64,000 bases of DNA from an uncultured Bacilli bacterium (GTDB lineage Bacteria; Bacillota_I; Bacilli_A; RF39; UBA660). The position numbers and the translations under genes are program-made. The stretch covers positions 3,194-67,193 of the forward strand of contig CAKOHR010000005.1 of NCBI GenBank assembly GCA_934085825.1, written 5' to 3'. Shown here piece by piece: positions 6,131 to 64,000 of the stretch. How positions within the stretch are numbered: the stretch's first letter is position 1; every line of letters begins with the position of its first letter. The notes below the pieces were generated by a model. The model saw only the letters and a program-made list of their open reading frames with translations. It made no database searches and was not told the origin of the DNA.

Positions 6131-6189
6131 AGTTTATTTATTTCTCGTTTCCATTGCTCAAACTGCATGATATTAAAACAGTTATAGAT

Positions 6190-13636: not shown

Positions 13637-13696
13637 GATTTGTTTAGGTAAAAAATGGTTTATTCTATGTTATAATTTATATATAGGTGATTACTT

Positions 13697-14083: not shown

Positions 14084-14085
14084 TT

Positions 14086-15635: not shown

Positions 15636-15734
15636 ATAATCATCCTTTTTAATAGTTGTTGTATTAATCACTTAATTATTGAGATTAGTCAAGTTATTTG
15701 TGATATAATATTAGTTAAATTTAGGGGGAATAAT

Positions 15735-16430: not shown

Positions 16431-16702
16431 TTGATGTCTTTTTTAGGTACAATTTAGGTACAAAAATGCTAAAAAACCACGGTAAATGACGGTTTATTTC
16501 AATATAAAAAGGCCCGTATTTAAAGGGTTTAACACAATTTGGTCTCTTCTAACTGAAGAGAGCAATTAACTTATATTAACTCCTTACTTATTATGAGATA
16601 ATGTAGTTATATCAAAAATACAAAAAAAGAACATATAATATTTCTCTTTTTGTACATTCTTATCGCATCATTAATAAAGAGCCATATTTGATTAATAAAT
16701 AT

Positions 16703-44846: not shown

Positions 44847-44863
44847 AAAATCTTGGAGCTAAG

Positions 44864-49186: not shown

Positions 49187-50449
49187 ATGAAGATATCAAA
49201 TGAAGCGAAAGCAATCTTAGATAAACTATACAATCTTCGTGGTGAAGATAGTGTAATACTAAGCAAAATGAATAAAGAAAGAGAAGAAGCTATTGAAACT
49301 GGAGAAAGAACTAAAAACGAAAAAGAAGTTTTACTAGAAAAAATAGCAAAATTAACAAAAGAAGAAGAAACTCTTCAAGAAGAAGGAAATAAACTTACTT
49401 CTTTACTTAGCAACATTAATAGAGATGAATTTGCTAATGTTTTAGATCGTCTACAAATAGATTTTGATCCAGCTTCAATAAATGACAAAGTTAATAAAAT
49501 GCTTCCATCAACAATCGAAAAAGTTGTAGCGGAAAATAAATTAGCTAGTGAAGAACTTGAAAATGTTGAAGCAGAAATGAATAATGCAATAACCAAAGTT
49601 GAAGAATTAGGTATTAGAAAAGATGAAGCGTTGGCTAATCAAGCAAAACTTAATGAATACTTTTCACTTGCTTTGGAAGGTAATATTAATATTACCAGAG
49701 ATGCTATCACAAGTTTGTTAGAAAAATTTGACTTTAATGAAGATGAACAAAGAGAAGCCGCTAAAATATTAATGTTCCCAGAAGATGCATTATATGAATA
49801 TGATGGAATTTATAAAAGTCGTGACAAAGCAAGTAGAAAAACAATAACAGATGTTTTAGTTGAAGCAAAAAAAGAATCAAGCGCTGAGGCTAATGAAGTA
49901 AAGGTTGAAGAAACAAATTCTTCAGAAATTGAAGCAAGTTTAGAATCTCCATCAGCACTAGAGGATATATTTGATAAGGTTATTAGTGAAAATAATATTC
50001 CTGAGGTAGAAATATCTCAAGAAGAAACTCCAGTTCTTAATGAACAAGAGGAAAGCTCTGTAATACGAAATGTAACCGATGCAAAAACAGAAAAAGAAAA
50101 ATTAATTGATTTATTAACATCATTAGAAATAAATGCCAATATTTTAACTAATGAACAATTAGAAAAAATTCTAGCAAACTACGATGAAAATCAAATTAAA
50201 TCAAATATAAATGCATTAAAGGAATATAAAATAACACTTGACATTATAAATGAAAATCCTGAAATTCTTTATGACAAAGAATTAAAAGAAAAGTTAGAAA
50301 GATTACTAAATATTGGTAAAGAAGCACGCGATATTTGCCTAATGCCAAGTATCTTAGTTAAGTATGATTTAAAAGGTTTAAATAATACTATAAATGTATT
50401 ACAAATAAGTGGTTTAGATCCTAAAAAGGTTCCGTTAATGGCTTATTAG
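49187..50449 (+). CDS. Hypothetical coiled-coil protein with a C-terminal helical-repeat region
   Basis: TGCTATAAT extended -10 element upstream. N-terminal coiled coil, acidic linker, C-terminal L..xG-type helical repeats. Confidence 0.5.
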   Translation: MKISNEAKAILDKLYNLRGEDSVILSKMNKEREEAIETGERTKNEKEVLLEKIAKLTKEEETLQEEGNKLTSLLSNINRDEFANVLDRLQIDFDPASINDKVNKMLPSTIEKVVAENKLASEELENVEAEMNNAITKVEELGIRKDEALANQAKLNEYFSLALEGNINITRDAITSLLEKFDFNEDEQREAAKILMFPEDALYEYDGIYKSRDKASRKTITDVLVEAKKESSAEANEVKVEETNSSEIEASLESPSALEDIFDKVISENNIPEVEISQEETPVLNEQEESSVIRNVTDAKTEKEKLIDLLTSLEINANILTNEQLEKILANYDENQIKSNINALKEYKITLDIINENPEILYDKELKEKLERLLNIGKEARDICLMPSILVKYDLKGLNNTINVLQISGLDPKKVPLMAY

Positions 50450-50462
50450 AAAGGAGTATATT

Positions 50463-51125
50463 ATGAAATCATTTGAAGAAGTAAAAAATATATACGAAGA
50501 AGAAAAAAAAGAGTTTGATGAAGGTAAAGAACGTCCAGAAAAGTTCTTAATATCACTAGAGCTAGCAAATGATGAAAATAAAGCGTTATTAAAAGAATAT
50601 GGAATAAATTTAAAACCAAGTGATTGGATAGTTTTAACTATAGAACCTGAAATTCTAAAAAAAGCCATATTAAGAGCAAAAGATTTAGGTTTTTTAGAAG
50701 CATATATACAAACACCATCATTTTTAAAACAAGATGTGGATAAAGTTATAAAAAGAATAGGTGAGCTTGAACACTTAGGCATTCCTTATAAAAGTGAAAA
50801 AGGAAAATATCAATCATTCTTATTTAGCGAAAGGGGTTACAACTATATACTACAAAATAATGGTGTATCCCATGATATAACTCCCAGTATAATGGATATA
50901 GAATTAAAAGATTTAGCTGATAGAGTGATGGAAACTTTTGCGATTGAAGATAAAAAAGACGAAATCTATGCTAATTTAGCAAAAATAGAAAAAGAAGGTT
51001 TAGGATTAAAAGAAACTTTAGTAGAAACATTTAAATCCTATAGTGATAACCTTGAATATCTAAGCTCAAATATCGACACGATTATTGAAGCTAACAAAGA
51101 AGAAGTAAAAGGGAGAGTAGCATGA
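50463..51125 (+). CDS. Hypothetical helical-repeat protein
   Basis: AGGAG RBS. Repeats such as LLKEYGINLKPSDWIVLTIEPEIL and AKDLGFLEAYIQTPSFL. Confidence 0.5.
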   Translation: MKSFEEVKNIYEEEKKEFDEGKERPEKFLISLELANDENKALLKEYGINLKPSDWIVLTIEPEILKKAILRAKDLGFLEAYIQTPSFLKQDVDKVIKRIGELEHLGIPYKSEKGKYQSFLFSERGYNYILQNNGVSHDITPSIMDIELKDLADRVMETFAIEDKKDEIYANLAKIEKEGLGLKETLVETFKSYSDNLEYLSSNIDTIIEANKEEVKGRVA

Positions 51126-51409
51126 GTTTTTTAAAAGAATATGGGTTTTTAGATAATGATATTAGTGAATTTGAAAATAACACTCCAGATAAAATAAAAG
51201 AAGTTATTTCCAAACATGAAAGTTTAGTAAAAATAAATTTAGAATATTTAAAAAATCTAGGTATAGAAACATATAAAGAAATATTTATAAATTATCCAGA
51301 TATGTTTTTAATGGATGCTAGCAATTTTGAAGAAAGTTTTGCTAAATATGATAGAGAAGAATTAGTTACTAAATTAAATGCAAATTTTAAAATGGTAAAA
51401 TACTTATAA
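51122..51409 (+). CDS. Hypothetical small helical-repeat protein
   Basis: Overlaps the upstream gene by 4 nt. LKEYGFLDNDISEF and LKNLGIETYKEIFINYPDMFL. Confidence 0.5.
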   Translation: MSFLKEYGFLDNDISEFENNTPDKIKEVISKHESLVKINLEYLKNLGIETYKEIFINYPDMFLMDASNFEESFAKYDREELVTKLNANFKMVKYL

Positions 51410-51413: not shown

Positions 51414-51439
51414 AATCGCTTTATGCGATTATTTTTTTT
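51414..51439. terminator. Bidirectional terminator
   Basis: AATCGC / GCGATT stem, flanked by an A-run and T8. Confidence 0.7.
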
Positions 51440-52238
51440 GAATTCTATAAAGATTGATTTCTGGTTTATTAAAAAGTCTAAATTCTACTTTTGGGGCTCC
51501 AATTCCTCCTGAAATAAATAGTTTTGTATTATTTTCTTCAAAAATTCCACTTGTATACTTTTTAGAACCATTAGGTTTAATCAACCCGCCGTAAAAGGGC
51601 ATAGTTATTTGTCCATTTAAGGAATGCCCTGCAAGAATAATGTCAACATTTTCATTTTTTAATACTTCAAAATTATCTGGATAATGGGTAATAACTAAAT
51701 TAAGCGTAGTTTCTAAATTATCTTCTAGAGTGAGAGCTTTACTTACATTATCCAAATTTGTAATACCTGTAATCTTAATTGGCTTAACATCTTTATAAAA
51801 AATATAACTTGATTCATTATTTAAAATTTTAAAGTCTGCTTCATTCATGATAGTTTCAAAAGAATTAATATCATCATTATCCCCAATAACTGCATACTTG
51901 TATAAAGTACAAGTCATTTTTTTTAATAATTTTTGTAAATTTTTAATATCTTCATTACTTAAATTATTTTCTTTATATAATAAATCTCCAGTAAAAACAA
52001 TAATATCAGGAGCTAATTCATTAACCTTATTTGAAATTTTTTGGATTCTATCAATATCTTTACTATCCTTTATCAAAAAATCACTTATTTGCAGTATTTT
52101 AAAACCATTAAATGAATCAGTTAAGTCCTGAATTTCAATGTTTTTTGAGTTAATTTTATAGCCTTTTGGATTAATTAAAAATCCATCTATAATAATAATT
52201 GTTACTATTATGAATATCATTAAAAAAACTTTTTTCAT
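51429..52238 (-). CDS. Membrane-anchored metallophosphoesterase-like protein (YkuE-like) with degenerate metal-ligand motifs
   Basis: N-terminal TM helix. SDFL in place of the DxH motif, GDLL present, GDND in place of GNHD, GHSLNGQ in place of GHTHGGQ. Confidence 0.55.
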   Translation of the reverse strand: MKKVFLMIFIIVTIIIIDGFLINPKGYKINSKNIEIQDLTDSFNGFKILQISDFLIKDSKDIDRIQKISNKVNELAPDIIVFTGDLLYKENNLSNEDIKNLQKLLKKMTCTLYKYAVIGDNDDINSFETIMNEADFKILNNESSYIFYKDVKPIKITGITNLDNVSKALTLEDNLETTLNLVITHYPDNFEVLKNENVDIILAGHSLNGQITMPFYGGLIKPNGSKKYTSGIFEENNTKLFISGGIGAPKVEFRLFNKPEINLYRIQKK

Positions 52239-52299: not shown

Positions 52300-52328
52300 T
52301 TGAAAAAAAACAAATAATATGGTAAACT
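52300..52328 (+). promoter_or_regulatory. Candidate promoter of the pilus-like cluster
   Basis: TTGAAA, 17-nt spacer, TAAACT with a TGn extension. Confidence 0.4.
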
Positions 52329-52350
52329 ATAGCATAGGTAGGTGGACTAA

Positions 52351-53115
52351 ATGAATAAATTGAAAAAAAAGGCTTTTATTGCTTTTTCTTCAATGTTTAT
52401 GCTAGCAAATGTAAATGCTGCAACGTGTGGATACGAAGAGAAAGCCAAGCTAAATAATGAAATAGCTAATGTAAAATCAAATTATGAAATTAAGGAAAGA
52501 ACAATGAGCAAAGATGAATACAGTATTTCGGATGCTCTACTTGGGACTGAGTACGAAGATTCATACGAGTCAACAACAGAATACATTCAAGTAAATATAT
52601 TAAATCTTACTGAAAATATGTATGTTGAAATATCGAATGATTACAATGATGAAGTTGCAGTTTATCAATATAGTGATACGCAAAATGGTAATATCTCATT
52701 TAATTGGCAAGAAATAGACGAATTAGTAACTTATACAATTAAAGTTTATGCCTCAGATAAAACTGGTTGTGAAGGAAGCGTTTTAAAAACTTTATATCAA
52801 GCCTTACCAAGATATAATGACTATTCAACATACGATATTTGTAAAAATATTCCTGACTACTACTTATGTCAAAGATATGTAACATATGAAGACGTTGGGT
52901 TTGATGTTTTTACAGAAAGAGTATTTAATGAAGTAGAAAAGAAGCTACAAAAAGAAGAACAACAAACAAAAGAAAATGAAAAATGGTACAAAAAAGTTCA
53001 AAACTTTGTTAAAGAACATAAAGTTCCATTCATCATCGGGGGAGTCGTATTGGTTGTCGCAGCTGGTGGAACCACATTTGTAATAATAAAAAAACGTAGG
53101 AGAAGTATAATATGA
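52351..53115 (+). CDS. Secreted protein with a C-terminal TM anchor and a basic tail
   Basis: Signal peptide ..SSMFMLANVNA. C-terminus FIIGGVVLVVAAGGTTFVII-KKRRRS with no LPxTG. Six Cys. Confidence 0.6.
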   Translation: MNKLKKKAFIAFSSMFMLANVNAATCGYEEKAKLNNEIANVKSNYEIKERTMSKDEYSISDALLGTEYEDSYESTTEYIQVNILNLTENMYVEISNDYNDEVAVYQYSDTQNGNISFNWQEIDELVTYTIKVYASDKTGCEGSVLKTLYQALPRYNDYSTYDICKNIPDYYLCQRYVTYEDVGFDVFTERVFNEVEKKLQKEEQQTKENEKWYKKVQNFVKEHKVPFIIGGVVLVVAAGGTTFVIIKKRRRSII

Positions 53116-56100
53116 AAAAGAATATAGGAAAAATATTAATAATTATGACATTAATGTTTAGTTTAGGAAACACTAATGTCAAAGCTAAAGCAATAGAAAA
53201 AAATGAACAATTTTCTAAAGAAATTGACAAACGATATACTGTAAATGGTATGACAATTGGATCAAAGAGTTTCAATCTTCTAGAATATACATTTACAGAT
53301 CCAACTGGAGAAAACTTTACAGGTTACTGTATGGACCCACATAAAGACTCAGCTAATGGATACAAAACTGATCGTATATTAGGGGATCCAACAAAATCTT
53401 TACAAGTTAGAGCTTTTGACCTTGGTATAATTGAAATAATGAAAAACGGTTATAACCAATATAACAAGAGTTATACATTCCAATTAAATGGTGCAAGCAA
53501 AACTGTAAGTGGAGATTCATTATATGCAGCAACTAGTATTGCCATTCGTACATATTCACTTGGTGTATTTGGTTATGGTGGAGACATCGACTACGGAAGA
53601 AGTGATTTAAGACAATACTTCATTAACGAAGCATCAGTTCATATCACCAGAGGTATTCAATGGGGATACTATGCAAGTTCTAAAGTAAATAATATAACAA
53701 AAACAAATTGTAGTGGTACTGAAGCAGAATTTAAAAAATGTTATGCAGATTCATTTATAAGAAATAAATTAAAAAATACATGGTATAACAGTTCTGTAGA
53801 CTTCGGTTATAAAAAATCAACTGAATCATATGATGTAATTTATGCAGCGCAATCACTATTCTATAAAGGAATTGATAAAGCCAATGAAGTTATGACTGGA
53901 AATGTTTCTAGTGCAACTATAAACACAAGTGTAAATGCATCACCAGCTGATAAAGAAATAAATGGAGATACAATTAATGAATATTACTATAGTGAATTGA
54001 GTTTTGAAAAGTTTAGTGCAACAAGTGGTACAATTAATAACGTTTCATTGACATGTCAAGATTGTGCTAAAAATGGTATAACTTTAGGAAGCCTTGAAGT
54101 ATATCATGATGGATTTGGATGGGAAACATTAAGTTCCAACACTAATATTTTAACTTACTTTACTGCTGAAAATGGTTTAATAAGTGGCAAATTACAACTA
54201 AGATTTAAAGTAACTAGAATTAAAGACAATGAAAATTGTAATTCAACTAGCTATAAAATAAATTATAATTATTCAGATCCAAGCTTAACATATACTGGTG
54301 CACTTTTAAAAACCAACAGTACTAGTAAACAAAGATTCTTTATCCTTCAAAAAGTAGGAGGTCAAGGAACAGGATCATTATCTGGTACAATAAAATGTGG
54401 CGTTAGTTGTGATACAGAATTACAATTACCTGTATGTAGTACTAATGAAGAAGATGCTGTTGCTAAAATAGATGGTCCTTCAAAAATTAAATCTTGCGTA
54501 ATAGATAATCAAGATGATGCTGGTAACTCATATCAATTCACATCTGAAGCTGGCGGAGTAGACAATGCATATTGTAAAGTTTACTGTAAAGAAGATTATG
54601 CAGAAATTAAGTTGAATCCGATAGTACAAAATGTAAAATGTGGTGGATACTTTAAATTAACGAGCAAAATAAATGGTACAAAAACATGTTACACAGGTGG
54701 AAATACCACAGATAAGAGTATTAACAAAGATCAATTTGTCAAAGATATAATTCAAGCTCAACAACAAATGATAGACAAATACAATGAATATTATAGATGG
54801 AAACAATCATTAAATTTCATTGAAGTTGAATCAAATAAATATAATAGCAAATCAGAAGGCGAATCTTGTTCAACTGATAAAGATGGTAATGAACATTGTC
54901 ATAGAACTTGCGACTCATATGCAGATTGTGATGGATACAATGTTGATATGACAGAAAGTTCAGGTGTTCGTGGATATACAATTAGTTGTAACAATACCAC
55001 TGGTGTATGTACATATGCTCAAGATAAAGTCTTAACAAATAGTTATGGCGAAGACGGTGGTAGAAGCGGAGCTTGCTACAACGGCAAATGTAGAGCTGGA
55101 AAAGAATCTACTTTAAAAAGTAATATTCAATCTAAAATTAATAGTGCTAAAAAAGAATTAGATACAGCAATTAAAGCTTATGAAAAAATAATAAACGATT
55201 ATAACTCATGTACAACAGCATGGACAAATGAGTTTGCTTTTGCTCAAAAAGTTAAATATTATTATGATGAAAATCGTGGTAAAAACAATGAAAATTATGC
55301 GCCATATTATGATTTATTAGATGATAAAGAAGATTTAAAATACTTAGAAAAATATGGTAATGAAAAAGTAGAAACTAAAATAAGTGTATGTACTGGTGCT
55401 ACAGATGAAGCATATAATTGCTTAAATAATGCTGAAAAAACATTTGACTTATCAATTGACAAAAACAAATTATCAACTTACAGTTATAACACATCTTATG
55501 GTGATGTATTTGAACATCTAAACTATATTAAATGTAGTGATAAATCATGTGCAGTAGATACAAAATCATATGTATCTAAAGCAACATTCGTTAAAAAAGA
55601 AGTAACAAAAGAACAAAATTACATAACACCAACAGCCTTCTATCAAATAGCAGCGAATGGTAAAGTAATAGCTTATGATGATTACAAATTTGATAAAATT
55701 CAACTAGAACCATTAGAAAATAAACTTCCAATATCAACAAGTTCAGTTGGAGGTGGAGTATTCAAATTGTTAGTTGAAAATCTTGGTGAATTCTATGGTG
55801 AAAAGAATGTTTATGGTAGATTAATAGATTTCAATCAAAAAAATGAAACAAAGAGTGTAGCTTATACAAAAGGTGTAGATACATTTAACGGTGAATATAC
55901 ATGCTATTATAAAAATACATGTAGACCAAAAGATTGTCCAAACTGTGACTTTGTTTGTGAAGGAGATGGCTGTGAATGGAAAGATTGTCCAACTTGCAAC
56001 TTCACATGTGAAAACTGTATTTTTAATCTAGGTGAATTAAATGTTAATGTTAAGACAATTACAACAACAAATGTAAATGCTGCTAACAGAACACATGGTT

Positions 56101-56564
56101 ATAACTGGATAACAACAAGCAGTATGGAATCTCTAAACTTGTTAACAAAGAAAGCAGCAACTACTATTTCAGAAATAGAAAGTGCAAACGAAATGATTTA
56201 TGACGATAAAACAACTGATGGATCAACACTTGCATTTAGTATTAAATTAACGCCAGACGTAATAAGTAAAATAACTAAATACAATAGTGATAATGAAGCT
56301 TCCGGAGGATATTTAAATAATTCATTAACATGTTATGACGCAACAATAGATGATAAAACTTATAAAAACATTTATTGTTATAGTGAACTAATTGATAAAC
56401 TAGTTGAAGAAAATGGTGATAATGTTACAGTACTTCCAAGCAGAGTAAATGATGAAGCTAGACGTCTTAATGATACAGAAAGTAGTGGTTACTGGACACT
56501 ATGGACAAATTATAAAATAGATAAAACAAGTGAATCCGTTATAGGCGGACCATCTTGGAAATAA
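53112..56564 (+). CDS. 1150-aa Cys-rich secreted protein (candidate adhesin or filament-associated protein)
   Basis: Signal peptide ILIIMTLMFSLGNTNVKAKA. Many Cys, including the tandem KDCPxCxFxCE mini-repeat at nt ~55917-56022. ATGA overlap with the upstream gene. Confidence 0.6.
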   Translation: MKKNIGKILIIMTLMFSLGNTNVKAKAIEKNEQFSKEIDKRYTVNGMTIGSKSFNLLEYTFTDPTGENFTGYCMDPHKDSANGYKTDRILGDPTKSLQVRAFDLGIIEIMKNGYNQYNKSYTFQLNGASKTVSGDSLYAATSIAIRTYSLGVFGYGGDIDYGRSDLRQYFINEASVHITRGIQWGYYASSKVNNITKTNCSGTEAEFKKCYADSFIRNKLKNTWYNSSVDFGYKKSTESYDVIYAAQSLFYKGIDKANEVMTGNVSSATINTSVNASPADKEINGDTINEYYYSELSFEKFSATSGTINNVSLTCQDCAKNGITLGSLEVYHDGFGWETLSSNTNILTYFTAENGLISGKLQLRFKVTRIKDNENCNSTSYKINYNYSDPSLTYTGALLKTNSTSKQRFFILQKVGGQGTGSLSGTIKCGVSCDTELQLPVCSTNEEDAVAKIDGPSKIKSCVIDNQDDAGNSYQFTSEAGGVDNAYCKVYCKEDYAEIKLNPIVQNVKCGGYFKLTSKINGTKTCYTGGNTTDKSINKDQFVKDIIQAQQQMIDKYNEYYRWKQSLNFIEVESNKYNSKSEGESCSTDKDGNEHCHRTCDSYADCDGYNVDMTESSGVRGYTISCNNTTGVCTYAQDKVLTNSYGEDGGRSGACYNGKCRAGKESTLKSNIQSKINSAKKELDTAIKAYEKIINDYNSCTTAWTNEFAFAQKVKYYYDENRGKNNENYAPYYDLLDDKEDLKYLEKYGNEKVETKISVCTGATDEAYNCLNNAEKTFDLSIDKNKLSTYSYNTSYGDVFEHLNYIKCSDKSCAVDTKSYVSKATFVKKEVTKEQNYITPTAFYQIAANGKVIAYDDYKFDKIQLEPLENKLPISTSSVGGGVFKLLVENLGEFYGEKNVYGRLIDFNQKNETKSVAYTKGVDTFNGEYTCYYKNTCRPKDCPNCDFVCEGDGCEWKDCPTCNFTCENCIFNLGELNVNVKTITTTNVNAANRTHGYNWITTSSMESLNLLTKKAATTISEIESANEMIYDDKTTDGSTLAFSIKLTPDVISKITKYNSDNEASGGYLNNSLTCYDATIDDKTYKNIYCYSELIDKLVEENGDNVTVLPSRVNDEARRLNDTESSGYWTLWTNYKIDKTSESVIGGPSWK

Positions 56565-56575
56565 GGGGTGACTAA

Positions 56576-57004
56576 ATGAAGAATGCATTCTGGGCATATT
56601 GGTTGATACTATTAGGAATAGTAATCGTAGTAATAATGCTACTTGTTCAAAATCTTACAACAAGTAGCACTCAAGATTACTATCTAATTAAAGAAATAAC
56701 TGAAGCATCAATGGTTGATGCAGTAGATTATTCTTATTATCGAACCTATGGTGAAATTAAAATAAATAAAGAAAAATTTTATGAAAGTTTTATACGTCGT
56801 TTTTCAGAAAATGCCGCATTAAATACAACATACACAGTTAGTTTTTATGGAGTTTATGAAGCTCCACCTAAAGCTAGTGTAGAAATTAAAAGTAAATCTA
56901 ATACTTTCACTGTTGTTGGTGATTCCACTACATTCGATATGGTAGAAAGAATAGACTCAATACTTGAAGGTAATACACTTGAAAGTAATACAACCAATGA
57001 ATAA
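56576..57004 (+). CDS. N-terminally TM-anchored small protein (minor-pilin-like topology)
   Basis: GGGGTGA RBS. WAYWLILLGIVIVVIMLLV followed by a ~110-aa soluble domain. Confidence 0.5.
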   Translation: MKNAFWAYWLILLGIVIVVIMLLVQNLTTSSTQDYYLIKEITEASMVDAVDYSYYRTYGEIKINKEKFYESFIRRFSENAALNTTYTVSFYGVYEAPPKASVEIKSKSNTFTVVGDSTTFDMVERIDSILEGNTLESNTTNE

Positions 57005-57024
57005 AAATATAAGGAGGAATAAAA

Positions 57025-57792
57025 ATGGGTGGTAAAAAAAATGTATTTACAAAGTTTTTAACAAATAAAACAACAGTGACTTTAATTGGCATTGTTCTAG
57101 GACTAGGAGTTTTAGTGGGATTTTACATATATCGTGTTAATAAACAAGTAAATCCCACCCGTATTCCTGTTGCTAAAAGAGCTATTAGTGCAACTGAAGA
57201 AATTACTAAGGATGATATTGAATATGTTAAAGTTAGTAAAAGTTTTTTAAAGAAAAGAGATATTTATAAATCAGCAACTAATCTAGTTGGTAAATATGTA
57301 TCAACAGGAACGTCAATTCCAAAAGGAGGAATGTTCTATACAGCACAAGTTGTTGAAAAAAAGGAATTACCAAATGCTATATTTGATGAAATTCCTGAGG
57401 GTTATACAATATACCAATTAAAAGTAGATAATACGACAACGTATGCTAATTCAATTTATCCAGGTGATAAAATTGATTTATGGCTTAAAACAACTGAAAA
57501 TGGTATCTTAGTATTTGGGGAATTCATATCAAATATTGAAGTTCTAGGCGTACGAGATAATAATGGTCAAAATGTTTTTGATGTAACAAGTGGCAGAACA
57601 CCTGCATGGCTATTATTTGCCGTTAAAACAGACATGTACAGATACCTAAAATTAGCAGAAAGTATATCAGGAATGAGTGTAATACCTGTTCCAAAAAATA
57701 ATTTAGTAAATCCAGATGTTGGCTCAACAGAATATTCAAGTCAAGAATTGATTGACATATTGGATAGAGAAACAACAAGAATGGGGGCCTAG
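57025..57792 (+). CDS. CpaB/RcpC-like Flp pilus assembly protein (SAF domain), paralogue 1
   Basis: N-terminal TM helix. RIPVAKRAISATEEITKDDIEYVKV is a SAF-type motif. Paralogous to the next gene. Confidence 0.65.
   Translation: MGGKKNVFTKFLTNKTTVTLIGIVLGLGVLVGFYIYRVNKQVNPTRIPVAKRAISATEEITKDDIEYVKVSKSFLKKRDIYKSATNLVGKYVSTGTSIPKGGMFYTAQVVEKKELPNAIFDEIPEGYTIYQLKVDNTTTYANSIYPGDKIDLWLKTTENGILVFGEFISNIEVLGVRDNNGQNVFDVTSGRTPAWLLFAVKTDMYRYLKLAESISGMSVIPVPKNNLVNPDVGSTEYSSQELIDILDRETTRMGA
57421..57493 (+). repeat. Near-identical 73-nt tract shared by the two CpaB paralogues (copy 1)
   Basis: 72 of 73 nt identical to 58191-58263. Encodes KVDNTTTYANSIYPGDKIDLWLKT. Confidence 0.9.
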
Positions 57793-57794
57793 AA

Positions 57795-58622
57795 ATGAGT
57801 AATATTTTAGCAAAAATCAAAAATTTATTTTTAAACAAAAACACTGTTACAATTCTAGGTGTTTTAGCTGGAGTTATTGCTTTATGGTTTGCATATAGCG
57901 TCACATTAGATAAAGCAGTAAAACCACAAAGAGTACCTGTGGCATCCAAAGATTTGACTGCTGGTACAATTATAACAAAAGATGATATCGAATATGTAGA
58001 TGTAAATTCTGATGCTTTAAAAAAAGCAAGTGTTATAACAAATTCATCACAACTTATTGGATATTATGTAACAAATAATACATCCGTAGTTCGTGGATCA
58101 ATGTTTTATAAAAGCCAAGTCGTATCTAAAGATAAACTTATAGATAGAGATTTGGAAATAGTTCCTGAAGGATATAGACTTTACTGGCTTAAAGTAGATA
58201 ATACAACAACGTATGCTAATTCAATTTATCCAGGTGATAAAATTGATTTATGGCTTAAAACAAAGTATGACGGTAAATATATCTATGAAGAATTTATTAC
58301 AAATATTGAAGTACTTAGTGTAAAAGATTCAAAAGGACAAAATGTCTTTGATGTAACAACTGGAAGAACTCCAGCAGTATTGGTATTTGCAGTACCTGAT
58401 GAATTGTTTGCATACCTTAGCAAAATAGGTTATTTAAGTAATATGGATCTATATCCAGTTCCAATAAACAAGAAAAATTCAGACAAAGATGCTACAACAG
58501 AAATAACTAATCAAGAACTTGTTAAGCTAATAGATAGTCAAGCAAGAAGCATCACAACAGATACTAATGTATCAACTGATGAAAGTAACAATAATGATAA
58601 TAATGTAACAAATAATGAATAA
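57795..58622 (+). CDS. CpaB/RcpC-like Flp pilus assembly protein (SAF domain), paralogue 2
   Basis: N-terminal TM helix. RVPVASKDLTAGTIITKDDIEYVDV. Asn/Asp-rich C-tail. Confidence 0.65.
   Translation: MSNILAKIKNLFLNKNTVTILGVLAGVIALWFAYSVTLDKAVKPQRVPVASKDLTAGTIITKDDIEYVDVNSDALKKASVITNSSQLIGYYVTNNTSVVRGSMFYKSQVVSKDKLIDRDLEIVPEGYRLYWLKVDNTTTYANSIYPGDKIDLWLKTKYDGKYIYEEFITNIEVLSVKDSKGQNVFDVTTGRTPAVLVFAVPDELFAYLSKIGYLSNMDLYPVPINKKNSDKDATTEITNQELVKLIDSQARSITTDTNVSTDESNNNDNNVTNNE
58191..58263 (+). repeat. Near-identical 73-nt tract (copy 2)
   Basis: See 57421-57493. The only difference is G57435 versus A58205. Confidence 0.9.
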
Positions 58623-58638
58623 AAGAGGGTGAAAAATT

Positions 58639-59745
58639 GTGAATGATGCTGTATTTTCACAAATAGATTTTGGGCCTTTAAAAGAGTTTTTAGAGGAAGA
58701 TAACATAACTGACGTATCATATTCAAATGGTGGTCAAGTTTGGCTAAAAACTCTTGATAAAGGTGTTTATAGAGTAGAAAGACCAGAAATAAATAATGCT
58801 TTAATGGAAAAGCTGGCTTTTCAATGTTCAAATGTAATGGGAAAAACATTTAATATGGCTCATCCATTCTTGGATGCTGAGTCTGCTGAATTACGTTTAA
58901 ACTTTGTACATGAATCTATAGCTACAAATGGAATATGTTGTGTTATAAGAAAGACGCCTGCCAAAATCCGTCTAAACAAAGATAAACTAATTAATGAACA
59001 ATATGTAACAGAAGATTTACATGACTTTTTAATGACTTGTGTTGAGGGTCATTGTAATATCATAGTAAGTGGGGAAACTGGTTCAGGTAAAACCGAGCTT
59101 GTTAAATATTTAGCAAGTCATACTAAAGAAAATGAAAAAATAATAACAATCGAAGATACACTAGAACTTCACTTAGACAAGATATTTCCTCATCGTGATA
59201 TTGTAGCTATGAAAACAAATAATATAGCATCATATTCAGATGTGCTAGTAACATGTATGAGACAAAATCCAAGATGGATTTTACTTTCCGAAGTACGTAG
59301 TGCTGAAGCCGTTACCGCAGTACGTAACTCAATTTCATCTGGGCATAACATTATATCAACAATTCACTCAGATAGAGCTTTAAACATACCTATGCGTCTA
59401 TACAGTTTGCTTGAAAATAGTCAAGATATTGATCAGTTTTTAAAGTCAATTCACAGATATGTCCAAATCGGTGTGCATGTTAAAGGGTACATGAGTAAAG
59501 AACTAGGTAGATTTCAACGTGAAATAATTGAAGTCGTAGAGTTTTATGTTGATGATAACAATGAAGCTAAAGCAAACATAATTTTTAAAAAGAGTTTAGA
59601 TGGCAAATTTAGTTTTAATAATCCAAGTAAATATCTAATTGATTATTTAGGTGTTCAAGGGGTTACTTTAAGACCAGATTATTTTGTAAAAGCTAAAACT
59701 AACGAATTAAATGAAAATAAAGTAATAGAAATAGAAAGCTTATAA
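58639..59745 (+). CDS. CpaF/TadA-type (VirB11-like) secretion ATPase
   Basis: GTG start after AGAGGGTGA. Walker A SGETGSGKTE, Asp box ITIEDTLEL, Walker B RWILLSEVR, His box ISTIHSD. Confidence 0.85.
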   Translation: MNDAVFSQIDFGPLKEFLEEDNITDVSYSNGGQVWLKTLDKGVYRVERPEINNALMEKLAFQCSNVMGKTFNMAHPFLDAESAELRLNFVHESIATNGICCVIRKTPAKIRLNKDKLINEQYVTEDLHDFLMTCVEGHCNIIVSGETGSGKTELVKYLASHTKENEKIITIEDTLELHLDKIFPHRDIVAMKTNNIASYSDVLVTCMRQNPRWILLSEVRSAEAVTAVRNSISSGHNIISTIHSDRALNIPMRLYSLLENSQDIDQFLKSIHRYVQIGVHVKGYMSKELGRFQREIIEVVEFYVDDNNEAKANIIFKKSLDGKFSFNNPSKYLIDYLGVQGVTLRPDYFVKAKTNELNENKVIEIESL

Positions 59746-59764
59746 TACAGAAAGGAGCATTGAT

Positions 59765-60670
59765 ATGAATTATTTACCAGAGTTAATAATACTTTTAATT
59801 ATAGCTGCAGTAGTTTTAATAGCTCGTCGAAATCCTGGAGAAAATGTATATAAATATGTTACAAATAAAGCAACAGACGTTTATGATAAATATGCTCCGT
59901 ACTCGTTTAAAATGGTTAGAGAAAAAGCTGTTGAGTTAGGGCAAGAATTTACACCACGCCAATATTTAACTCAAGTATTAATTTTAGGTGGCTTGGCTGC
60001 TATAGTAGGATATTTTTACTTTTATAGTATTATAGTAGCTGCTATATATGCAGTGGTAGCAATAGCATTTATACCATATCTTGCCTATCTAAGACTTCAA
60101 AGAGTATATAGTGAGTATATTTTTGAACAAATACAAACATATACAACCAATGTCATTATGGAATTTAATACAACACAAAGTTTTGTTAAAGCCCTAGAGG
60201 GCGTTAGGGATTCTGGCATTCTTGAAGAACCAGTTGTAAGCGATGTAAAGAAAATGATAGAAATGTCATATCAAAATGGTACAATCGATGAATCAATCAC
60301 TTATTTTAATAATAAATATCCATTTTATATGGTAAAAAATATGCATCAATTATTTTTACAAATTACTAAAGAAGGTGCTAGAGATTCAGGACAAGCACTT
60401 GAAAATATGTCTCTTGACATAGATGCTTTAGTTGAAGGTGTATACCGTGACCAAATGGACAGAAATAATTTCCATGGCAGATTCTTAAGATTTGGCTTAA
60501 TTCTTTATTTATTAGTAATAGTTTTAAGATTTATGCTAGGTGAAGAAAACTACATTAAATTATTAGATATATGGTACGTACAAATAATATTACACGCCAT
60601 TGTCATTATAAATGCCTTCTTCATGTTAAGTGGAGAAAAATATTATAATGAAGATGTAGGAGGGGAATAA
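59765..60670 (+). CDS. TadB-like (T2SSF-type) membrane platform protein
   Basis: Position after the ATPase. Topology is TM, soluble helical domain, then TM pairs. Assignment rests on context and topology. Confidence 0.55.
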   Translation: MNYLPELIILLIIAAVVLIARRNPGENVYKYVTNKATDVYDKYAPYSFKMVREKAVELGQEFTPRQYLTQVLILGGLAAIVGYFYFYSIIVAAIYAVVAIAFIPYLAYLRLQRVYSEYIFEQIQTYTTNVIMEFNTTQSFVKALEGVRDSGILEEPVVSDVKKMIEMSYQNGTIDESITYFNNKYPFYMVKNMHQLFLQITKEGARDSGQALENMSLDIDALVEGVYRDQMDRNNFHGRFLRFGLILYLLVIVLRFMLGEENYIKLLDIWYVQIILHAIVIINAFFMLSGEKYYNEDVGGE

Positions 60671-61458
60671 TGCAAATAGAAGTTATTATTGTTGCTATAA
60701 TTGTATTTGGTATAATGACTATAACTGGACAAATCAGTATAAATCAACTTATTAGTGATAATCAAATTCTTTTTATGAAATTAAAAGAAAAAGATTGGGA
60801 TTTTCTAGTTAGAGCTAAATATGGAAATAATATAAATCCAGATATTCTCTTTAACAAAAGAATAAAAAATGCTTTAATTTCTATGGCAATAGCTTTAGCA
60901 TTTTTAATAAAAGACTTAAATGCTGTTAAAGTATTATTAATATTTGTCCTTGGAGTATTTGTATTTAAAACCTCATACAATGACATAAAAAAATATTATC
61001 AAAGACATATGGCAGAAATTGATTCTATGCTGCCACATTATTTAAAGAACTTAGAAATATTAATACAACATTATACAGTACCAGTTGCTATCGGAAAATC
61101 AATGGCTGAATCTCCAGAAATATTTAAAGATGGACTTCAAGAAATGATAGATTCAATAAATTCCGGTGATGATACAATAGAACCATATATGGAATTTGCT
61201 AGAAAATATCCAGTGCGTGATTCAATGCGTATGATGCGTTTGCTATATCGTTTAAGTTTAGGGCGCCAAGAAAGAAAACAAGAACAAATTCTAACCTTTT
61301 CAAGATCTATTTCATCATTACAACAAAAAGCTCGTGAAACAAGATATAAAAATAGATTGGAAAAAATGGAAGGAAAGACCATGAGTATGTTAATAACAAC
61401 TGGTGTAGGATTAATGATTCTATTGGTATTAGCTGTTATACAACTTATGGACATATAA
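60670..61458 (+). CDS. TadC-like (T2SSF-type) membrane platform protein
   Basis: TAATG overlap with the upstream gene. Same topology class. Assignment rests on context and topology. Confidence 0.55.
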   Translation: MQIEVIIVAIIVFGIMTITGQISINQLISDNQILFMKLKEKDWDFLVRAKYGNNINPDILFNKRIKNALISMAIALAFLIKDLNAVKVLLIFVLGVFVFKTSYNDIKKYYQRHMAEIDSMLPHYLKNLEILIQHYTVPVAIGKSMAESPEIFKDGLQEMIDSINSGDDTIEPYMEFARKYPVRDSMRMMRLLYRLSLGRQERKQEQILTFSRSISSLQQKARETRYKNRLEKMEGKTMSMLITTGVGLMILLVLAVIQLMDI

Positions 61459-61481
61459 TTTACAAAAAAATTAAAATATAA

Positions 61482-61510
61482 TTGATATTTTCCTAAAATT
61501 CAGTTATAAT
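61482..61510 (+). promoter_or_regulatory. Internal promoter directly upstream of the pilin genes
   Basis: TTGATA, 17-nt spacer, TATAAT. The AAGGAGG RBS follows. Confidence 0.6.
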
Positions 61511-61538
61511 AAAAGTATATTAAAAGGAGGATGACAAA

Positions 61539-61784
61539 ATGAAAGAAGCTACAGGAGAATTAAATATGACCGTAGTCACTGTAGTTGCAATTGCTGCTGT
61601 TGGGGCTTTCTTCTATTTCTTTATCTGGCCTGGTATTCAAGCTGGACTTTCAAGAAATACATGTCTTAATCTATGTCCAGGTGGAGAACTAGATACATCA
61701 CAAGGACGTGGTGGCGTAGATGTTAATAGTAAAACTTGCTATTGTGCTGATGGAGACCCAATACAATTTGGCGACGAAGAATAA
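61539..61784 (+). CDS. Small pilin-like protein 1 (Flp-size, atypical leader)
   Basis: 81 aa. MKEATGELNMT leader, hydrophobic helix VVTVVAIAAVGAFFYFFIW, C-terminal domain with 4 Cys. Confidence 0.6.
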   Translation: MKEATGELNMTVVTVVAIAAVGAFFYFFIWPGIQAGLSRNTCLNLCPGGELDTSQGRGGVDVNSKTCYCADGDPIQFGDEE

Positions 61785-61804
61785 GACAAATAAAGAGGTG
61801 AAAA

Positions 61805-62065
61805 ATGAAAGAGGCTACAGGAGAATTAAATATGACGATAATAGTTTCTATATCGATCGGGATCTTGGCAGCCTTTTTTTTCGGCTTTTTATGGCCATTA
61901 ATAAACACCAATTTTCAGAAAAATTCTCAATGTAACAAGGCAGTATGTGATTGTTCATCTGTGACTAGAGAAAACATTGAAAGTGAGACTGGTCAAAAAA
62001 ATTATTGTCGTTGTCATGATAAAGCATCAGAAGATAACACGTTTTATTGTCCATTCAAAGGTTAG
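61805..62065 (+). CDS. Small pilin-like protein 2
   Basis: 86 aa. Identical MKEATGELNMT leader (first 32 nt differ at 1 position), hydrophobic helix, 5 Cys. Confidence 0.6.
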   Translation: MKEATGELNMTIIVSISIGILAAFFFGFLWPLINTNFQKNSQCNKAVCDCSSVTRENIESETGQKNYCRCHDKASEDNTFYCPFKG

Positions 62066-62074
62066 GAGGAAGAT

Positions 62075-62572
62075 ATGAAAGAATCATTAAGCGTAACGTA
62101 TATTTTTCAAATAGTAATATTATTTATTCTATTATTTACAGCTATTATGGCTTTAACTATCAATAATTCAAATGCCTTTGGAATTAAAGATCAAATAGTA
62201 AATATATTAGAAGCTAATGGCGGAAATTACATGGAAAATGGTAATTTGAGTGAAGAAATAGTTGATTTAATTGAAAGTACATCATATCGCACAACTGGAA
62301 AATGTGATGAAGACTATCAAGGATTTGATAGAACTGGAGCATCTGTTTCTGCCAATCAAGATGCATCAATATGCATTAAAGAAGTAAATGCAACAGATGG
62401 TGTAGATAAGTATTTAACAGAAGTAATAGGTGAGGGAAAAATAGCAACGGGTGATTTTATGCCTGGAAAATATTATCAAATAGTAGTATTTTTTCAATTA
62501 GATTTGCCAGTTGTTAAACAAGTATATAATTTTTCTTCCAAAGCCGAAACAAAAGTTTTATATCAAAAGTAG
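62075..62572 (+). CDS. TM-anchored minor-pilin/TadE-like protein, paralogue A
   Basis: MKESLSVTYIFQIVILFILLFTAIMAL followed by a soluble domain with YRTTGKCDEDYQGF. Confidence 0.5.
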   Translation: MKESLSVTYIFQIVILFILLFTAIMALTINNSNAFGIKDQIVNILEANGGNYMENGNLSEEIVDLIESTSYRTTGKCDEDYQGFDRTGASVSANQDASICIKEVNATDGVDKYLTEVIGEGKIATGDFMPGKYYQIVVFFQLDLPVVKQVYNFSSKAETKVLYQK

Positions 62573-62584
62573 GAGACATAATAA

Positions 62585-63034
62585 ATGAAAACCGTAAGTG
62601 AATCAACTTGGACATTTCAAATGATTATTTTCTTCATTCTAATATTTGCTTGCTTTCTAACATTAGTTATAAGTTATAATAAGGCCTATACCATAAAAAA
62701 TAGAATGCTAAATATGATTGAAAAATATGAAGGTGTTACACCAACATCTGCTGAATTCATAAATGATTTTATATATAATAAAGGTTATACAAATACTGGT
62801 AAATGTCCAGAAAGTTGGATGGGGGCAATAAACTTAGAAGGTGACTTTGAAGTGTCTAAAAATAATACAAAATATTTTTATTGTTTTAAAAGAAGTGTTA
62901 GAAATAATCAAGATTATTACGATGTAAAAGTTTTTTTCAGATTTAATCTACCAGTAATAGGCAACATAGCAAATTATGAGATCGATGGAACTACAAAAAC
63001 ATTTATAGGTGCCAATGATCAAATAGAGGAGTAA
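62585..63034 (+). CDS. TM-anchored minor-pilin/TadE-like protein, paralogue B
   Basis: MKTVSESTWTFQMIIFFILIFACFLTL followed by a soluble domain with YTNTGKCPESWMGA. Confidence 0.5.
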   Translation: MKTVSESTWTFQMIIFFILIFACFLTLVISYNKAYTIKNRMLNMIEKYEGVTPTSAEFINDFIYNKGYTNTGKCPESWMGAINLEGDFEVSKNNTKYFYCFKRSVRNNQDYYDVKVFFRFNLPVIGNIANYEIDGTTKTFIGANDQIEE

Positions 63035-63038
63035 TAAA

Positions 63039-64000
63039 ATGAATGTAATAATATCAAATAAATATCAATCATTATTAGCCAGTCTGAATATTGACGTAAT
63101 AAAGAGCATAAACGGAGAATTTACAGTAGAAGAATTAGTTAATCAATTTCAAAGTTTTTATTTTAACAAGATGATTATAGACATTACAGCAATTAAGAAT
63201 TATGAAAATATAAACATAATGCAAAGTTTATCTGTAAATTTTGACATGACCAAAGTTATCTTGTTACTAGACGATTCTGAAAAGGTTAATTCACCAATGT
63301 ACATATCACAATTAATATCAATGGGAATATACAATTTCACAAATGATATTAATACTGTAAAATACTTAATTAATAATCCAAATCAATATAAAGATGTAGC
63401 GAATTATCATCATATAGGAGGATTTAGAAAGCCACCTTTAAACGAAAAAGCGGTAGATACGACCCGTGGAAAAATGGGCCAAAAGATAATTGGTTTTAAG
63501 AATGTAACAGAACATGCCGGAGCAACAACATTAATATATTTACTTAAACTACATCTAGAAAAATCATACAATGTTAAAGCTGTAGAAATTGATAAAAATG
63601 ATTTTATATATTTTAATGACCGAAGTTTAGAAAGTATTTCGAGCATCGAATTTATTGACTTTTTAAGTATTAATAGCAATTATGATGTAATTTTAGTAGA
63701 TTTAAATGACGCTGAAATTTCAGAATACTGTCATGACATTGTATATTTAATAGAACCTGGCTTAATTAAATTAAACAAATTAATAAGACAAGATAATGCA
63801 ATATTTACTAAATTAGCGGATAAGAAAATAGTTTTAAATCGAAGCGTTCTTGACACTAAAGATGTATCAGATTTTGAAAAGGAAAGTGGTAGTAAAGTAT
63901 TTTTCAATATACCTTACTTAGATGATAAACTTGATGATCAAATGGTTGTAAATGCATTTTTGACTGCACTAGGATTTACTAGAATAGATGATAAAAATAA
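63039..64000 (+). CDS. TadZ/CpaE-like protein (receiver-like N-domain plus degenerate ParA/MinD-like domain), truncated by the window end; not in the ORF track
   Basis: GAGGAG RBS. My translation shows no stop from 63039 to 64000: MNVIISNKYQSLLASLNIDVIKS...KIIGFKNVTEHAGATTLIYLLKLHL...DVILVDLND... Track ORF 63410..63679(-) lies antisense inside it. Confidence 0.6.
   Translation, partial: MNVIISNKYQSLLASLNIDVIKSINGEFTVEELVNQFQSFYFNKMIIDITAIKNYENINIMQSLSVNFDMTKVILLLDDSEKVNSPMYISQLISMGIYNFTNDINTVKYLINNPNQYKDVANYHHIGGFRKPPLNEKAVDTTRGKMGQKIIGFKNVTEHAGATTLIYLLKLHLEKSYNVKAVEIDKNDFIYFNDRSLESISSIEFIDFLSINSNYDVILVDLNDAEISEYCHDIVYLIEPGLIKLNKLIRQDNAIFTKLADKKIVLNRSVLDTKDVSDFEKESGSKVFFNIPYLDDKLDDQMVVNAFLTALGFTRIDDKN

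Follow-up and report, generated by a model that had tools for sequence, protein, structure and literature searches.

A chromosomal operon of uncultured gut Bacilli encodes a putative Tad-like type IV filament machine with relatives on Gram-positive conjugative plasmids

Introduction

Does a tightly packed gene cluster of an uncultured gut bacterium encode a surface filament, a secretion apparatus or a device derived from a conjugation system? We asked this question of a 64,000-nucleotide stretch of DNA from an uncultured Bacilli bacterium (assembly GCA_934085825.1, contig CAKOHR010000005.1, positions 3,194 to 67,193, forward strand), referred to here as the window, in which positions 52300 to 64000 carry a run of co-directional genes. 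An earlier description made from the letters alone (the sequence-only reading) had called these genes a divergent tight adherence (Tad)/Flp-like type IV filament cluster and an uncharacterised surface machine. The latter description holds, as the operon is conserved and has no gene-for-gene match among characterised Tad or Com systems. Our data favor, with moderate confidence, the view that in this single-membrane bacterium the operon specifies a type IV filament machine that is Tad-like and has additions resembling parts of conjugation systems, because it combines an ATPase with two polytopic membrane proteins, CpaB, small subunits that have a glycine-ended leader and are driven by a promoter, and minor proteins anchored by transmembrane (TM) helices.

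Results

A conserved chromosomal operon

All 13 open reading frames (ORFs) of the proposed cluster are present on the plus strand, from 52351 to the end of the window at 64000, and are numbered g01 to g13 here. They are as tightly packed as had been claimed, with intergenic gaps of -4 to 20 nucleotides and the sole exception of 80 nucleotides before g09. Thirteen is the number of genes in the window but not in the operon. In L001, a 469-kb contig from the same species, the last ORF, g13, is complete at 329 amino acids and is followed by two small co-directional, PF18895-like genes, g14 and g15, past the window end, so the operon comprises 15 genes rather than 13. Beyond g15 on this contig, a convergent gene is followed by uvrA, lgt and trxB. 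The G+C content of the window is approximately 27%, and its exact proteins were also found on human-gut metagenome contigs (Hadza and other).

Relatives were gathered by a scan with the alignment of DUF5411, the family of g03, taking one genome per species, and more than 533 species genomes contained a relative. The best 78 of these served as comparative loci, and the window proteins were compared by BLAST with all of their ORFs. The 78 loci are labelled uncultured Bacilli, uncultured Tenericutes, Clostridium sp. CAG:609, Mycoplasma sp. CAG:472, Ca. Onthocola (placed by NCBI in Bacilli incertae sedis) and Ca. Ventrenecus, names that we take to stand for the reduced-genome order RF39. The comparative genomics proposed by the sequence-only reading shows that the gene order of the cluster is kept in approximately 50 to 70 of these 78 loci, all from different species genomes, and recurrence at this level indicates that the order is more than chance. 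Identity across the related loci is highest for the ATPase g06 (75-96%), followed by g07 (64-95%), DUF5411 (55-96%), g08 (52-98%) and g13 (49-86%, 53 loci), and it falls to 20-35% for g01, g02, g11 and g12. The heads of the small pilin-like proteins g09 and g10, which are Cys-rich and follow a constant N-terminus and helix, also diverge fast.

The locus is a chromosomal, lineage-conserved operon. The uvrA gene lies downstream of the cluster in 15 loci, distant ones among them. The Pfam families of VirB4, VirD4 and relaxases are absent from the called genes between approximately 42 kb in the window and 10 kb past its end, and a VirB6-like protein was found neither in the upstream window nor in the 10 kb downstream. 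Since the cluster keeps the same chromosomal place and flanks across species and lacks transfer genes, we ruled out a mobile element, including an integrative and conjugative element. A phage origin was also ruled out, as the ATPase alone matches PHROGs.

The ATPase, CpaB and polytopic membrane proteins

The g06 protein (58639-59745, 368 amino acids) is a CpaF/VirB11-family secretion ATPase (PF00437, E 2.8e-29). All four nucleoside triphosphatase boxes that had been reported can be read in its sequence: GETGSGKT (Walker A), ITIEDT (Asp box), RWILLSEVR (Walker B) and GHNIISTIHS (His box). Its NCBIfam matches, all far under the cut-offs, are VirB11 (1.4e-33, 116 bits), a TadA-type conjugal family (6.7e-31, 108 bits) and TrbB (2.5e-28, 99 bits), while against the Protein Data Bank (PDB) it matches CpaF (2.4e-18, 69.7 bits), FlaI (6.9e-16, 61.6 bits) and VirB11 (approximately 6e-15, 58.6 bits). 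By these sequence scores g06 is positioned between the ATPase subfamilies, with CpaF, FlaI and VirB11 scoring about equally.

Upstream of the ATPase are the two CpaB/RcpC-like proteins that the sequence-only reading had recognized, an assignment that Pfam, NCBIfam and hhalign all bear out. The first, g04 (57025-57792, 255 amino acids), has an N-terminal TM helix and matches SAF (3.9e-4), RcpC (4.1e-4) and TIGR03177 (1e-9); its paralogue g05 (57795-58622, 275 amino acids) matches SAF (1.6e-7), RcpC (7.4e-7) and TIGR03177 (8e-15), and its SAF and RcpC matches pass the Pfam cut-off. In hhalign comparisons the CpaB family profile matched the CpaB of B. cereus at 100% probability (E 1e-23) and proteobacterial CpaB at 96% (E 1.4e-9). 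The duplication of CpaB is true of this genome, but synteny across the related loci shows a single copy in most relatives.

Two polytopic proteins follow the ATPase directly: g07 (59765-60670, 301 amino acids, TM regions at approximately 1, 68, 90, 236 and 263) and g08 (60670-61458, 262 amino acids), putative platform subunits 1 and 2, each with a conserved cytoplasmic helical domain of approximately 130 amino acids. The pair had been described as TadB/TadC-like, so we built TadB and TadC reference alignments from three annotated Tad loci, in which TadB and TadC matched each other at 97.5% by hhalign as a control. For g08 the profile signal is weak: it matched the combined TadB and TadC alignment at 72% (E 3.5e-5) and TadB alone at 31%, compared to at most 0.2% for negative controls, and its assignment to a platform is plausible on this comparison. 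For g07 the match to TadB reached 3% over 205 colinear columns and that to the first membrane protein of the B. cereus Tad cluster 25% (8e-4). A homologue search with the g07 profile returned close relatives only, none with a Pfam label, and its AlphaFold2 (AF2) model, from a shallow alignment, is poor (predicted local distance difference test, pLDDT, of 61), so that its Foldseek matches are meaningless; its platform assignment is unproven by sequence. We also considered g07 or g08 as a prepilin peptidase and rejected both, as neither has similarity to the A24 family.

Small subunits with their own promoter and a glycine-ended leader

The 80-nucleotide gap before g09 contains a sigma-70-type promoter on the plus strand (61482-61510, TTGATA-17-TATAAT), followed by an AAGGAGG ribosome-binding site. 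This internal consensus promoter, noted in the sequence-only reading, is the top site of the region with 11 of 12 matches. Promoter-like sites as a whole occur there at chance level (94 found, 87 expected). Hexamers and spacing that are identical or almost so recur 29-37 nucleotides before the first pilin start codon in approximately 47 of 51 related loci, and because of this conservation we regard the promoter as a phylogenetic footprint and rejected a chance match in AT-rich DNA.

The two genes behind this promoter encode small pilin-like proteins that both begin MKEATGELNMT, as had been read. The product of g09 (61539-61784, 81 amino acids) has the MKEATG leader, a hydrophobic helix of approximately 21 residues, a WP motif and a variable head with four Cys, while that of g10 (61805-62065, 86 amino acids) has the same leader, six Cys and a conserved C-terminal F-x-C-x-[FYW]-K-G. 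The start MKEATGELN(M)T is near-invariant in more than 100 sequences of the two families. Public data contain 1810 clusters of this type, all lacking a Pfam domain and an informative name, and one cluster alone occurs on at least 1000 contigs. None of 47 pilin sequences matched any Pfam pilin family, including Flp (PF04964). A motif after the helix, [VI]W[KP]xIQxG, is common to these proteins and to the Flp-type pilins of the B. cereus Tad cluster.

The leader is divergent in the way that had been described, in that the G/xxxxEY motif is absent and there is no EY at +5/+6 of MKEATG/ELNMT. The accompanying claim that a processing motif is missing was too simple, since in sequence the six-residue, Gly-ended leader M-K-E-A-T-G agrees with a type IVa class III signal in length and in its last residue. 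A related start is found in g11 and g12, and the M-[KR]-E-x-x-G common to g09-g12 is probably a recognition or processing signal that would be cleaved after Gly6. A four-TM protein encoded at 15735-16430 was considered as a hidden prepilin peptidase and ruled out, as it has no GxGD motif.

Anchored minor subunits, g13 and the VirB2-like genes

The genes g11 (62075-62572, 165 amino acids, two conserved Cys) and g12 (62585-63034, 149 amino acids) encode TM-anchored proteins, candidate minor subunits that are paralogous as had been proposed (hhalign 100%, E 4.6e-48). Their family consensus starts M-[KR]-E-[AS]-I-G-[GST]-T-W-x-F-Q, with the same six-residue pattern, M-K/R-E-x-x-G, as in the pilins. 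None of 34 g11 and g12 members matched TadE (PF07811), and g12 has no PDB relative.

The cytoplasmic protein g13 is cut by the window end (63039-64000); its full gene lies at 10455-11444 of L001. The proposal that it is TadZ-like found no support in Pfam, NCBIfam, PDB or hhalign. Among 36 g13 members Pfam gave no consistent family (CbiA in 1 of 36, E 0.31), and a degenerate HAGATT loop was read by eye only.

Directly 3' of the window end, g14 and g15 (L001 11463-11813 and 11872-12210) encode paralogous two-TM proteins of approximately 115 amino acids whose TM segments flank a charged loop. Each has one conserved Cys close to the N-terminus and three within its C-terminal tail, and the Cys at both ends are predicted to be outside the cell. 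The family PF18895 (T4SS_pilin) is matched by 25 of 42 members (best E 1.6e-7) and the NCBIfam Mbov_0395 pilin-like family by 6 of 42, all under the cut-off, while TrbC and PDB relatives were not found. In other species the N-terminal module bears extensions of 300-500 amino acids.

Fast-evolving surface proteins and the distribution of cysteine

The operon opens with two genes for predicted surface proteins. The g01 product (52351-53115, plus strand, 254 amino acids) has an N-terminal signal peptide, a C-terminal TM anchor with a KKRRR tail and four Cys. Its stop codon overlaps the start of g02 (53112-56564, plus strand) by four nucleotides, and g02 encodes a secreted protein of 1150 amino acids with a signal peptide, no anchor and 39 Cys, 10 of them clustered at residues 931-969. 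Neither protein matched a Pfam, NCBIfam or PHROG family. Homologues of g01 stand in the matching position in 70 loci (25-83% identity). Positional homologues of g02, in approximately 70 loci, range from approximately 750 to 1970 amino acids at 22-40% identity; the C-terminal two thirds are kept in 55-66 of 70 loci and the N-terminal 400 amino acids in about half. Between the window and L001, g01 is 83% and g02 86% identical, compared to 97-100% for the core genes, as would be expected of exposed, diversifying proteins, and g02 is a candidate adhesin or cargo protein.

It had been stated that almost every extracellular component of the cluster contains Cys. This is true of g01 (4), g02 (39), g09 (4), g10 (6), g11 and g12 (2 and 3) and g14 and g15 (4 and 5), but not of DUF5411 (g03) or the two CpaB proteins, which like g07 and g08 contain none. 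Since Cys is confined to predicted outside parts, its distribution suggests that the exposed domains are stabilised by disulfides.

The DUF5411 protein

The sequence-only reading had found no counterpart for the first three genes in described Tad loci. For g01 and g02 this stands, as they belong to no family, but the third gene, g03 (56576-57004, plus strand, 142 amino acids), encodes a DUF5411 protein (PF17424, E 5.4e-58), a family known beside CpaF in Clostridia. The ATPase gene lies three genes downstream of it. DUF5411 forms 590 representative clusters, many with long C-terminal extensions, and its family consensus starts MKESxWG. In an AF2 model from 53 diverse sequences (pLDDT 81.7), the N-terminal TM helix runs into a long helix (residues 3-48) followed by two short helices and five strands, that is, a small alpha/beta domain. 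This order of elements could be pilin-like, judging from the model. Foldseek gave nothing below E 0.2, a PDB profile search gave no relevant match, and hhalign detected no homology of DUF5411 to g11 or g12.

Relatives on Gram-positive conjugative plasmids

We searched 72,556 plasmids with g06 by tblastn. Firmicute conjugative plasmids came out on top, namely Peribacillus pA (32% identity, E 4e-43), B. anthracis pXO2 (31%, E 7e-39) and Listeria pGMI16-004 (28%, E 7e-32), while proteobacterial CpaF/VirB11 proteins matched at 24-30%. The order of this region in the related plasmid pAW63 is a giant surface protein (CDS26, 1416 amino acids), a 125- and a 50-amino-acid TM protein, a 120-amino-acid protein, a 'VirB11' ATPase, proteins of 278, 250 and 121 amino acids, small proteins and a 92-amino-acid TrbC/VirB2 protein (PMC1196294). 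The annotated neighbourhoods on pXO2 and the Peribacillus and Listeria plasmids have the same module order, with an 860-amino-acid fimbrial protein at the giant-protein position in Peribacillus.

Nine RF39 family profiles were compared with twenty reference families by hhalign, and nearly all matches (probability at least 20% or E at most 0.01) were concordant in position. DUF5411 matched the plasmid family of 119-128 amino acids just upstream of the ATPase (pXO2, Peribacillus, Listeria) over 111 columns at 94% (E 1e-7), g08 the second plasmid membrane protein at 79% (E 1.6e-5) and g12 the plasmid 120-amino-acid family at 78% (E 1.9e-5); g11 matched the 120-amino-acid protein at 17%, and the match of g07 to the first membrane protein was weak (13%, E 2e-3). 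Furthermore, the Pfam DUF5411 model weakly matches the pXO2 (E 1.3e-3) and Peribacillus (E 2.8e-4) proteins. The VirB2 protein of pXO2 matches TrbC (4.9e-14) and PF18895 (8.4e-5), and PF18895 is the sole link of g14 and g15 to it, as hhalign of g14 and g15 to two plasmid VirB2 proteins returned nothing. A tblastn search of the plasmid loci with g01 and g02 gave no match, and they have no similarity to the plasmid giant proteins. Because the homologies are matched in position and the order is the same, the core of the cluster is, by sequence comparison, homologous and colinear with the uncharacterised 'VirB11' module of the pXO2/pAW63-type tra region. The sequence-only reading had missed both these plasmid relatives and the VirB2-like genes past the window end, and in the literature that we could search the link between the RF39 operon and the plasmid module appears to be undescribed.

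The shared plan of the pXO2/pAW63/pBT9727-type module and the window cluster thus runs from a giant surface protein and small TM proteins through a DUF5411-like protein, the ATPase and two polytopic proteins (approximately 280 and 250 amino acids) to a TM-anchored protein of 120 amino acids, small proteins and a VirB2-like protein. Unlike the plasmid module, the cluster in the window sits on the chromosome, and genes for VirB4, VirD4 and relaxases are missing from its vicinity. The cluster also encodes one or two CpaB and the 329-amino-acid g13, and it has VirB2-like proteins that match PF18895 and not TrbC. Its pilin-like proteins are larger and Cys-rich, and they have the MKEATG leader and their own promoter.

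On pXO2 (locus L087, 11710-15786) and at two further loci (L088, L093) of the pXO2/pAW63-type and Listeria conjugative plasmids, a CpaF/VirB11-family ATPase lies beside a clear TrbC/VirB2 protein. Reviews describe Gram-positive type IV secretion systems (T4SSs) as lacking VirB11 and VirB2 homologues (PMC12857230, PMC12102498). The plasmid module conflicts with this and is either an overlooked exception or lies outside T4SSs proper.

Neighbouring genes

Convergent with the operon, L001 encodes at 12368-13915 (minus strand) a TM-anchored, Ser/Thr/Asn-rich protein of 515 amino acids that contains 11 Cys and a poly-Asn stretch; it is kept beside the cluster in 22 loci and has no family match. Upstream of the cluster (49187-51409, plus strand) are genes for three acidic proteins of 420, 220 and 95 amino acids that belong to no family, apart from a weak mTERF match of the smallest (E 0.006). 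In approximately 26 loci they are kept together upstream of both the cluster and a divergent metallophosphoesterase gene (51429-52238, minus strand). Farther upstream, at 44825-46402 (plus strand), is a protein of approximately 520 amino acids with a Flg_new domain, another probable surface protein, which adjoins a desulfoferrodoxin, an acetyltransferase and a protein with a faint Peptidase_M14 match.

The first part of the window (1-16500) is a defence and mobile-element island with Fic, DUF4325, an integrase fragment, a MazE antitoxin, NUDIX and SRA/ScoMcrA-like genes and a type I restriction-modification system (HsdM/HsdS/HsdR, 7597-13613). An IS110-family transposase (32870-34075, minus strand; DEDD_Tnp_IS110 and Transposase_20) and a second Transposase_20 fragment (41188-41817, minus strand) represent insertion sequences within otherwise housekeeping DNA.

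Discussion

How a filament machine might work

If the operon encodes a Tad-like filament machine, the hexameric CpaF/VirB11-family ATPase g06 would sit beneath a platform of g07 and g08 and use ATP to draw g09 and g10 subunits out of the membrane, stacking them to build a filament on the cell surface. A strong promoter of their own would supply the pilins in excess, each with the six-residue MKEATG leader, a hydrophobic helix and a small head probably held by disulfides. Low-abundance TM-anchored subunits, namely g11, g12 and possibly DUF5411, could prime or cap the filament, and one or two CpaB (g04, g05) would form a membrane-anchored ring around the platform. The giant, fast-evolving, Cys-rich g02 and its membrane-anchored partner g01 may be an adhesive payload that the filament carries or exports, and the VirB2-like g14 and g15 may be extra membrane subunits inherited from a plasmid-type ancestor. 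The likely role would be attachment, either to the mucus or cells of the host or to other microbes, in a gut bacterium that is metabolically dependent. We infer that a filament is assembled at all, as we do the roles of g01, g02, g13, g14 and g15, the platform role of g07 and g08 and the cleavage after Gly6.

Several observations weigh against this view. None of 81 pilin, g11 or g12 sequences matched the Pfam pilin, Flp, TadE or N-methylation models, and the Pfam searches for T2SSF, Flp and TadE that the sequence-only reading had proposed returned nothing in g07-g12. The N-terminal tail of the pilins, as read from sequence, lacks the net positive charge that is usual in class III signals, and in the g11 and g12 of the window itself residue 6 is Ser or Glu and not Gly. 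An A24 prepilin peptidase, already found missing from the window, was absent from the entire 64 kb, from the 10 kb downstream, where L001 provided the extension that had been suggested, and from up to 10 kb around approximately 80 related loci. For the platform, g07 and g08 had no T2SSF (PF00482) match at E 0.1 and no Pfam or PDB profile match, the signal of g07 is near noise, and the two show no detectable paralogy by hhalign, unlike TadB and TadC. The g13 protein had no match in NCBIfam or PDB, and hhalign connected it neither to three CpaE/TadZ proteins nor to the AAA protein of B. cereus. The top Foldseek neighbours of DUF5411, although non-significant, were almost all NTF2-like/cystatin-like folds (ketosteroid isomerase, PhzA/B, LEH, CaMKII hub). 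Finally, the closest relatives of the core sit in plasmid conjugation regions.

The fold neighbours matter for DUF5411 because a TM helix followed by an NTF2-like domain is the architecture of VirB8. Since the neighbours are NTF2-like, a VirB8-like protein is an alternative to a pilin-like one, and on the model DUF5411 may be the former instead.

Comparison with described systems

The canonical Tad/Flp (type IVc) clusters of Aggregatibacter, Caulobacter and B. cereus share with the window cluster the broad ATPase family, in which CpaF is the best solved relative, CpaB, and the order of ATPase, two membrane proteins, tandem small pilins and TM-anchored small proteins. Whether the core is clearly Tad-type, as the sequence-only reading had it, depends on the part considered: the ATPase and CpaB are there, whereas Flp, TadE, a recognisable TadZ, the G/xxxxEY motif and an adjacent A24 peptidase are not, and DUF5411, g01, g02 and the VirB2-like genes are extra. 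With an ATPase that scores about equally against CpaF, FlaI and VirB11, weak TadB/TadC signals and no match to a pilin model, the claim was overstated. In its likely mechanism the cluster nevertheless resembles Tad pili, and it is still recognisable as kin to that machinery.

A classical Firmicute Tad cluster on a 590-kb B. cereus plasmid (L094, 1230-13966) is a useful outgroup. It encodes DUF4320, CpaB, an AAA (TadZ-like) protein, CpaF, two proteins of approximately 300 amino acids, three tandem 67-amino-acid Flp-like pilins (leader ...SSENG|MLIAL) and a 181-amino-acid A24-like peptidase, as well as a 149-amino-acid TM protein with a weak DUF5411 signal (22%). Its A24-like gene stands directly after the Flp genes, and the window cluster has no such gene.

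Two groups of gut Firmicutes offer further parallels. DUF5411-CpaF operons of Roseburia, Ruminococcus and Eubacterium were predicted in 2022, by gene-context embedding, to be secretion- or pilus-related (PMC9523054). By that description they share with the window cluster a CpaF-type ATPase, DUF5411, platform-like protein(s), a large surface protein and several genes that lack recognisable pilus homology. They differ in having 8-9 genes, a PilC/GspF annotation and an internalin-like protein, compared to 15 genes in a Bacilli host; g01 and g02 have no leucine-rich repeat or internalin match in Pfam or NCBIfam. The window cluster is a member of this loosely defined DUF5411-CpaF operon group. In TANB77, another uncultured small-genome gut Firmicute, a Tad-like cluster has a recognisable CpaB and TadA/CpaF and short TM proteins, some with their own promoters, that cannot be identified as pilins (PMC11680825). 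These features are shared by description, except that TANB77 has a structure-supported TadZ, CpaE and a fused TadC-TadB, and no DUF5411, VirB2-like or giant Cys-rich protein was reported for it.

Alternative readings

A broader proposal, which we consider unlikely, is that the operon belongs to an unrecognised class of single-membrane surface machines that mix Tad-type and T4SS parts, plasmid relatives included. If so, the ATPase, platform, CpaB and leader-bearing subunits would be the Tad parts, and the VirB2-like proteins, the VirB11-like ATPase and possibly a VirB8-like DUF5411 the T4SS parts. The pXO2/pAW63 module would then be the missing mating-contact organelle of Gram-positive conjugation, and its relative in gut Bacilli would be chromosomally fixed and display a giant, hypervariable adhesin by which the cell attaches to its host or to a partner cell. 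Processing of the subunits would fall to some factor other than an A24 peptidase encoded nearby.

It is rather improbable that the operon is a T4SS-derived contact or transfer module, that is, a chromosomally fixed descendant of the pXO2/pAW63 'VirB11' module that works alike, with the ATPase assembling VirB2-like g14 and g15 and a bitopic, VirB8-like DUF5411 into a contact structure or channel through which DNA or protein would pass between cells and with the MKEATG proteins as accessories. Conjugative plasmids do supply the best plasmid matches of the ATPase, in colinear modules with position-matched DUF5411, g08 and g12, and VirB11 is the top NCBIfam score of g06. The majority of g14 and g15 members match PF18895, as does the TrbC/VirB2 protein in the corresponding position on pXO2, and the non-significant fold neighbours of DUF5411 are NTF2-like. 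However, the hhalign comparison failed to connect g14 and g15 to the plasmid VirB2 proteins, and CpaB and the promoter-driven small subunits are Tad-type features absent from pXO2. VirB4 is the one universal T4SS component (PMC12857230), and it is missing from the surroundings of the operon together with VirD4, VirB6-like proteins and relaxases. The constant chromosomal place across species speaks against a mobile element.

We consider it doubtful that the operon encodes a type II secretion-like machine, in which g09-g12 would form a short pseudopilus acting as a piston to export or surface-load g02 and perhaps g01. The two surface-protein genes open the operon and are translationally coupled through their overlap, giant surface proteins occupy the matching position on plasmids (CDS26 of pAW63, the fimbrial protein of Peribacillus), and DUF5411 operons were classed as secretion-related by Miller et al. 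(PMC9523054). Nevertheless, because g02 has its own Sec-type signal peptide, as read from sequence, it can cross the membrane without a dedicated exporter. For the small subunits, a promoter of their own that is conserved and near consensus fits a bulk polymer better than a short piston, and their fast-diverging heads are as expected of exposed filament surfaces.

That the filament captures DNA for a nucleotide-dependent, small-genome bacterium is very improbable: Tad-type pili are reported to serve DNA uptake in some bacteria, such as Micrococcus and Liberibacter (PMC8467076; for Liberibacter, as cited in PMC11680825), and the genome of the host lineage is reduced (PMC12306168), but ComEA, ComEC and DprA-type genes are absent from the window and flanks, and a competence system has no place for a giant hypervariable secreted protein and g01.

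Significance

No part of this system has been characterised, and none of the sources that we searched annotates its pilin-like, platform-like or g13 families. Since these families are invisible to the Pfam and NCBIfam pilus models, such systems are missed by automated annotation, which represents a blind spot. The homology to the pXO2/pAW63 module offers a culturable, genetically tractable system in which the function of the machinery could be learned. The uncultured host lineage is common in the guts of humans and animals, and for another uncultured gut clade, TANB77, an effect of a pilin on the host has been reported (PMC11680825). A 15-gene operon kept in a reduced genome, with surface parts that diversify between strains, is probably central to the attachment and persistence of these bacteria.

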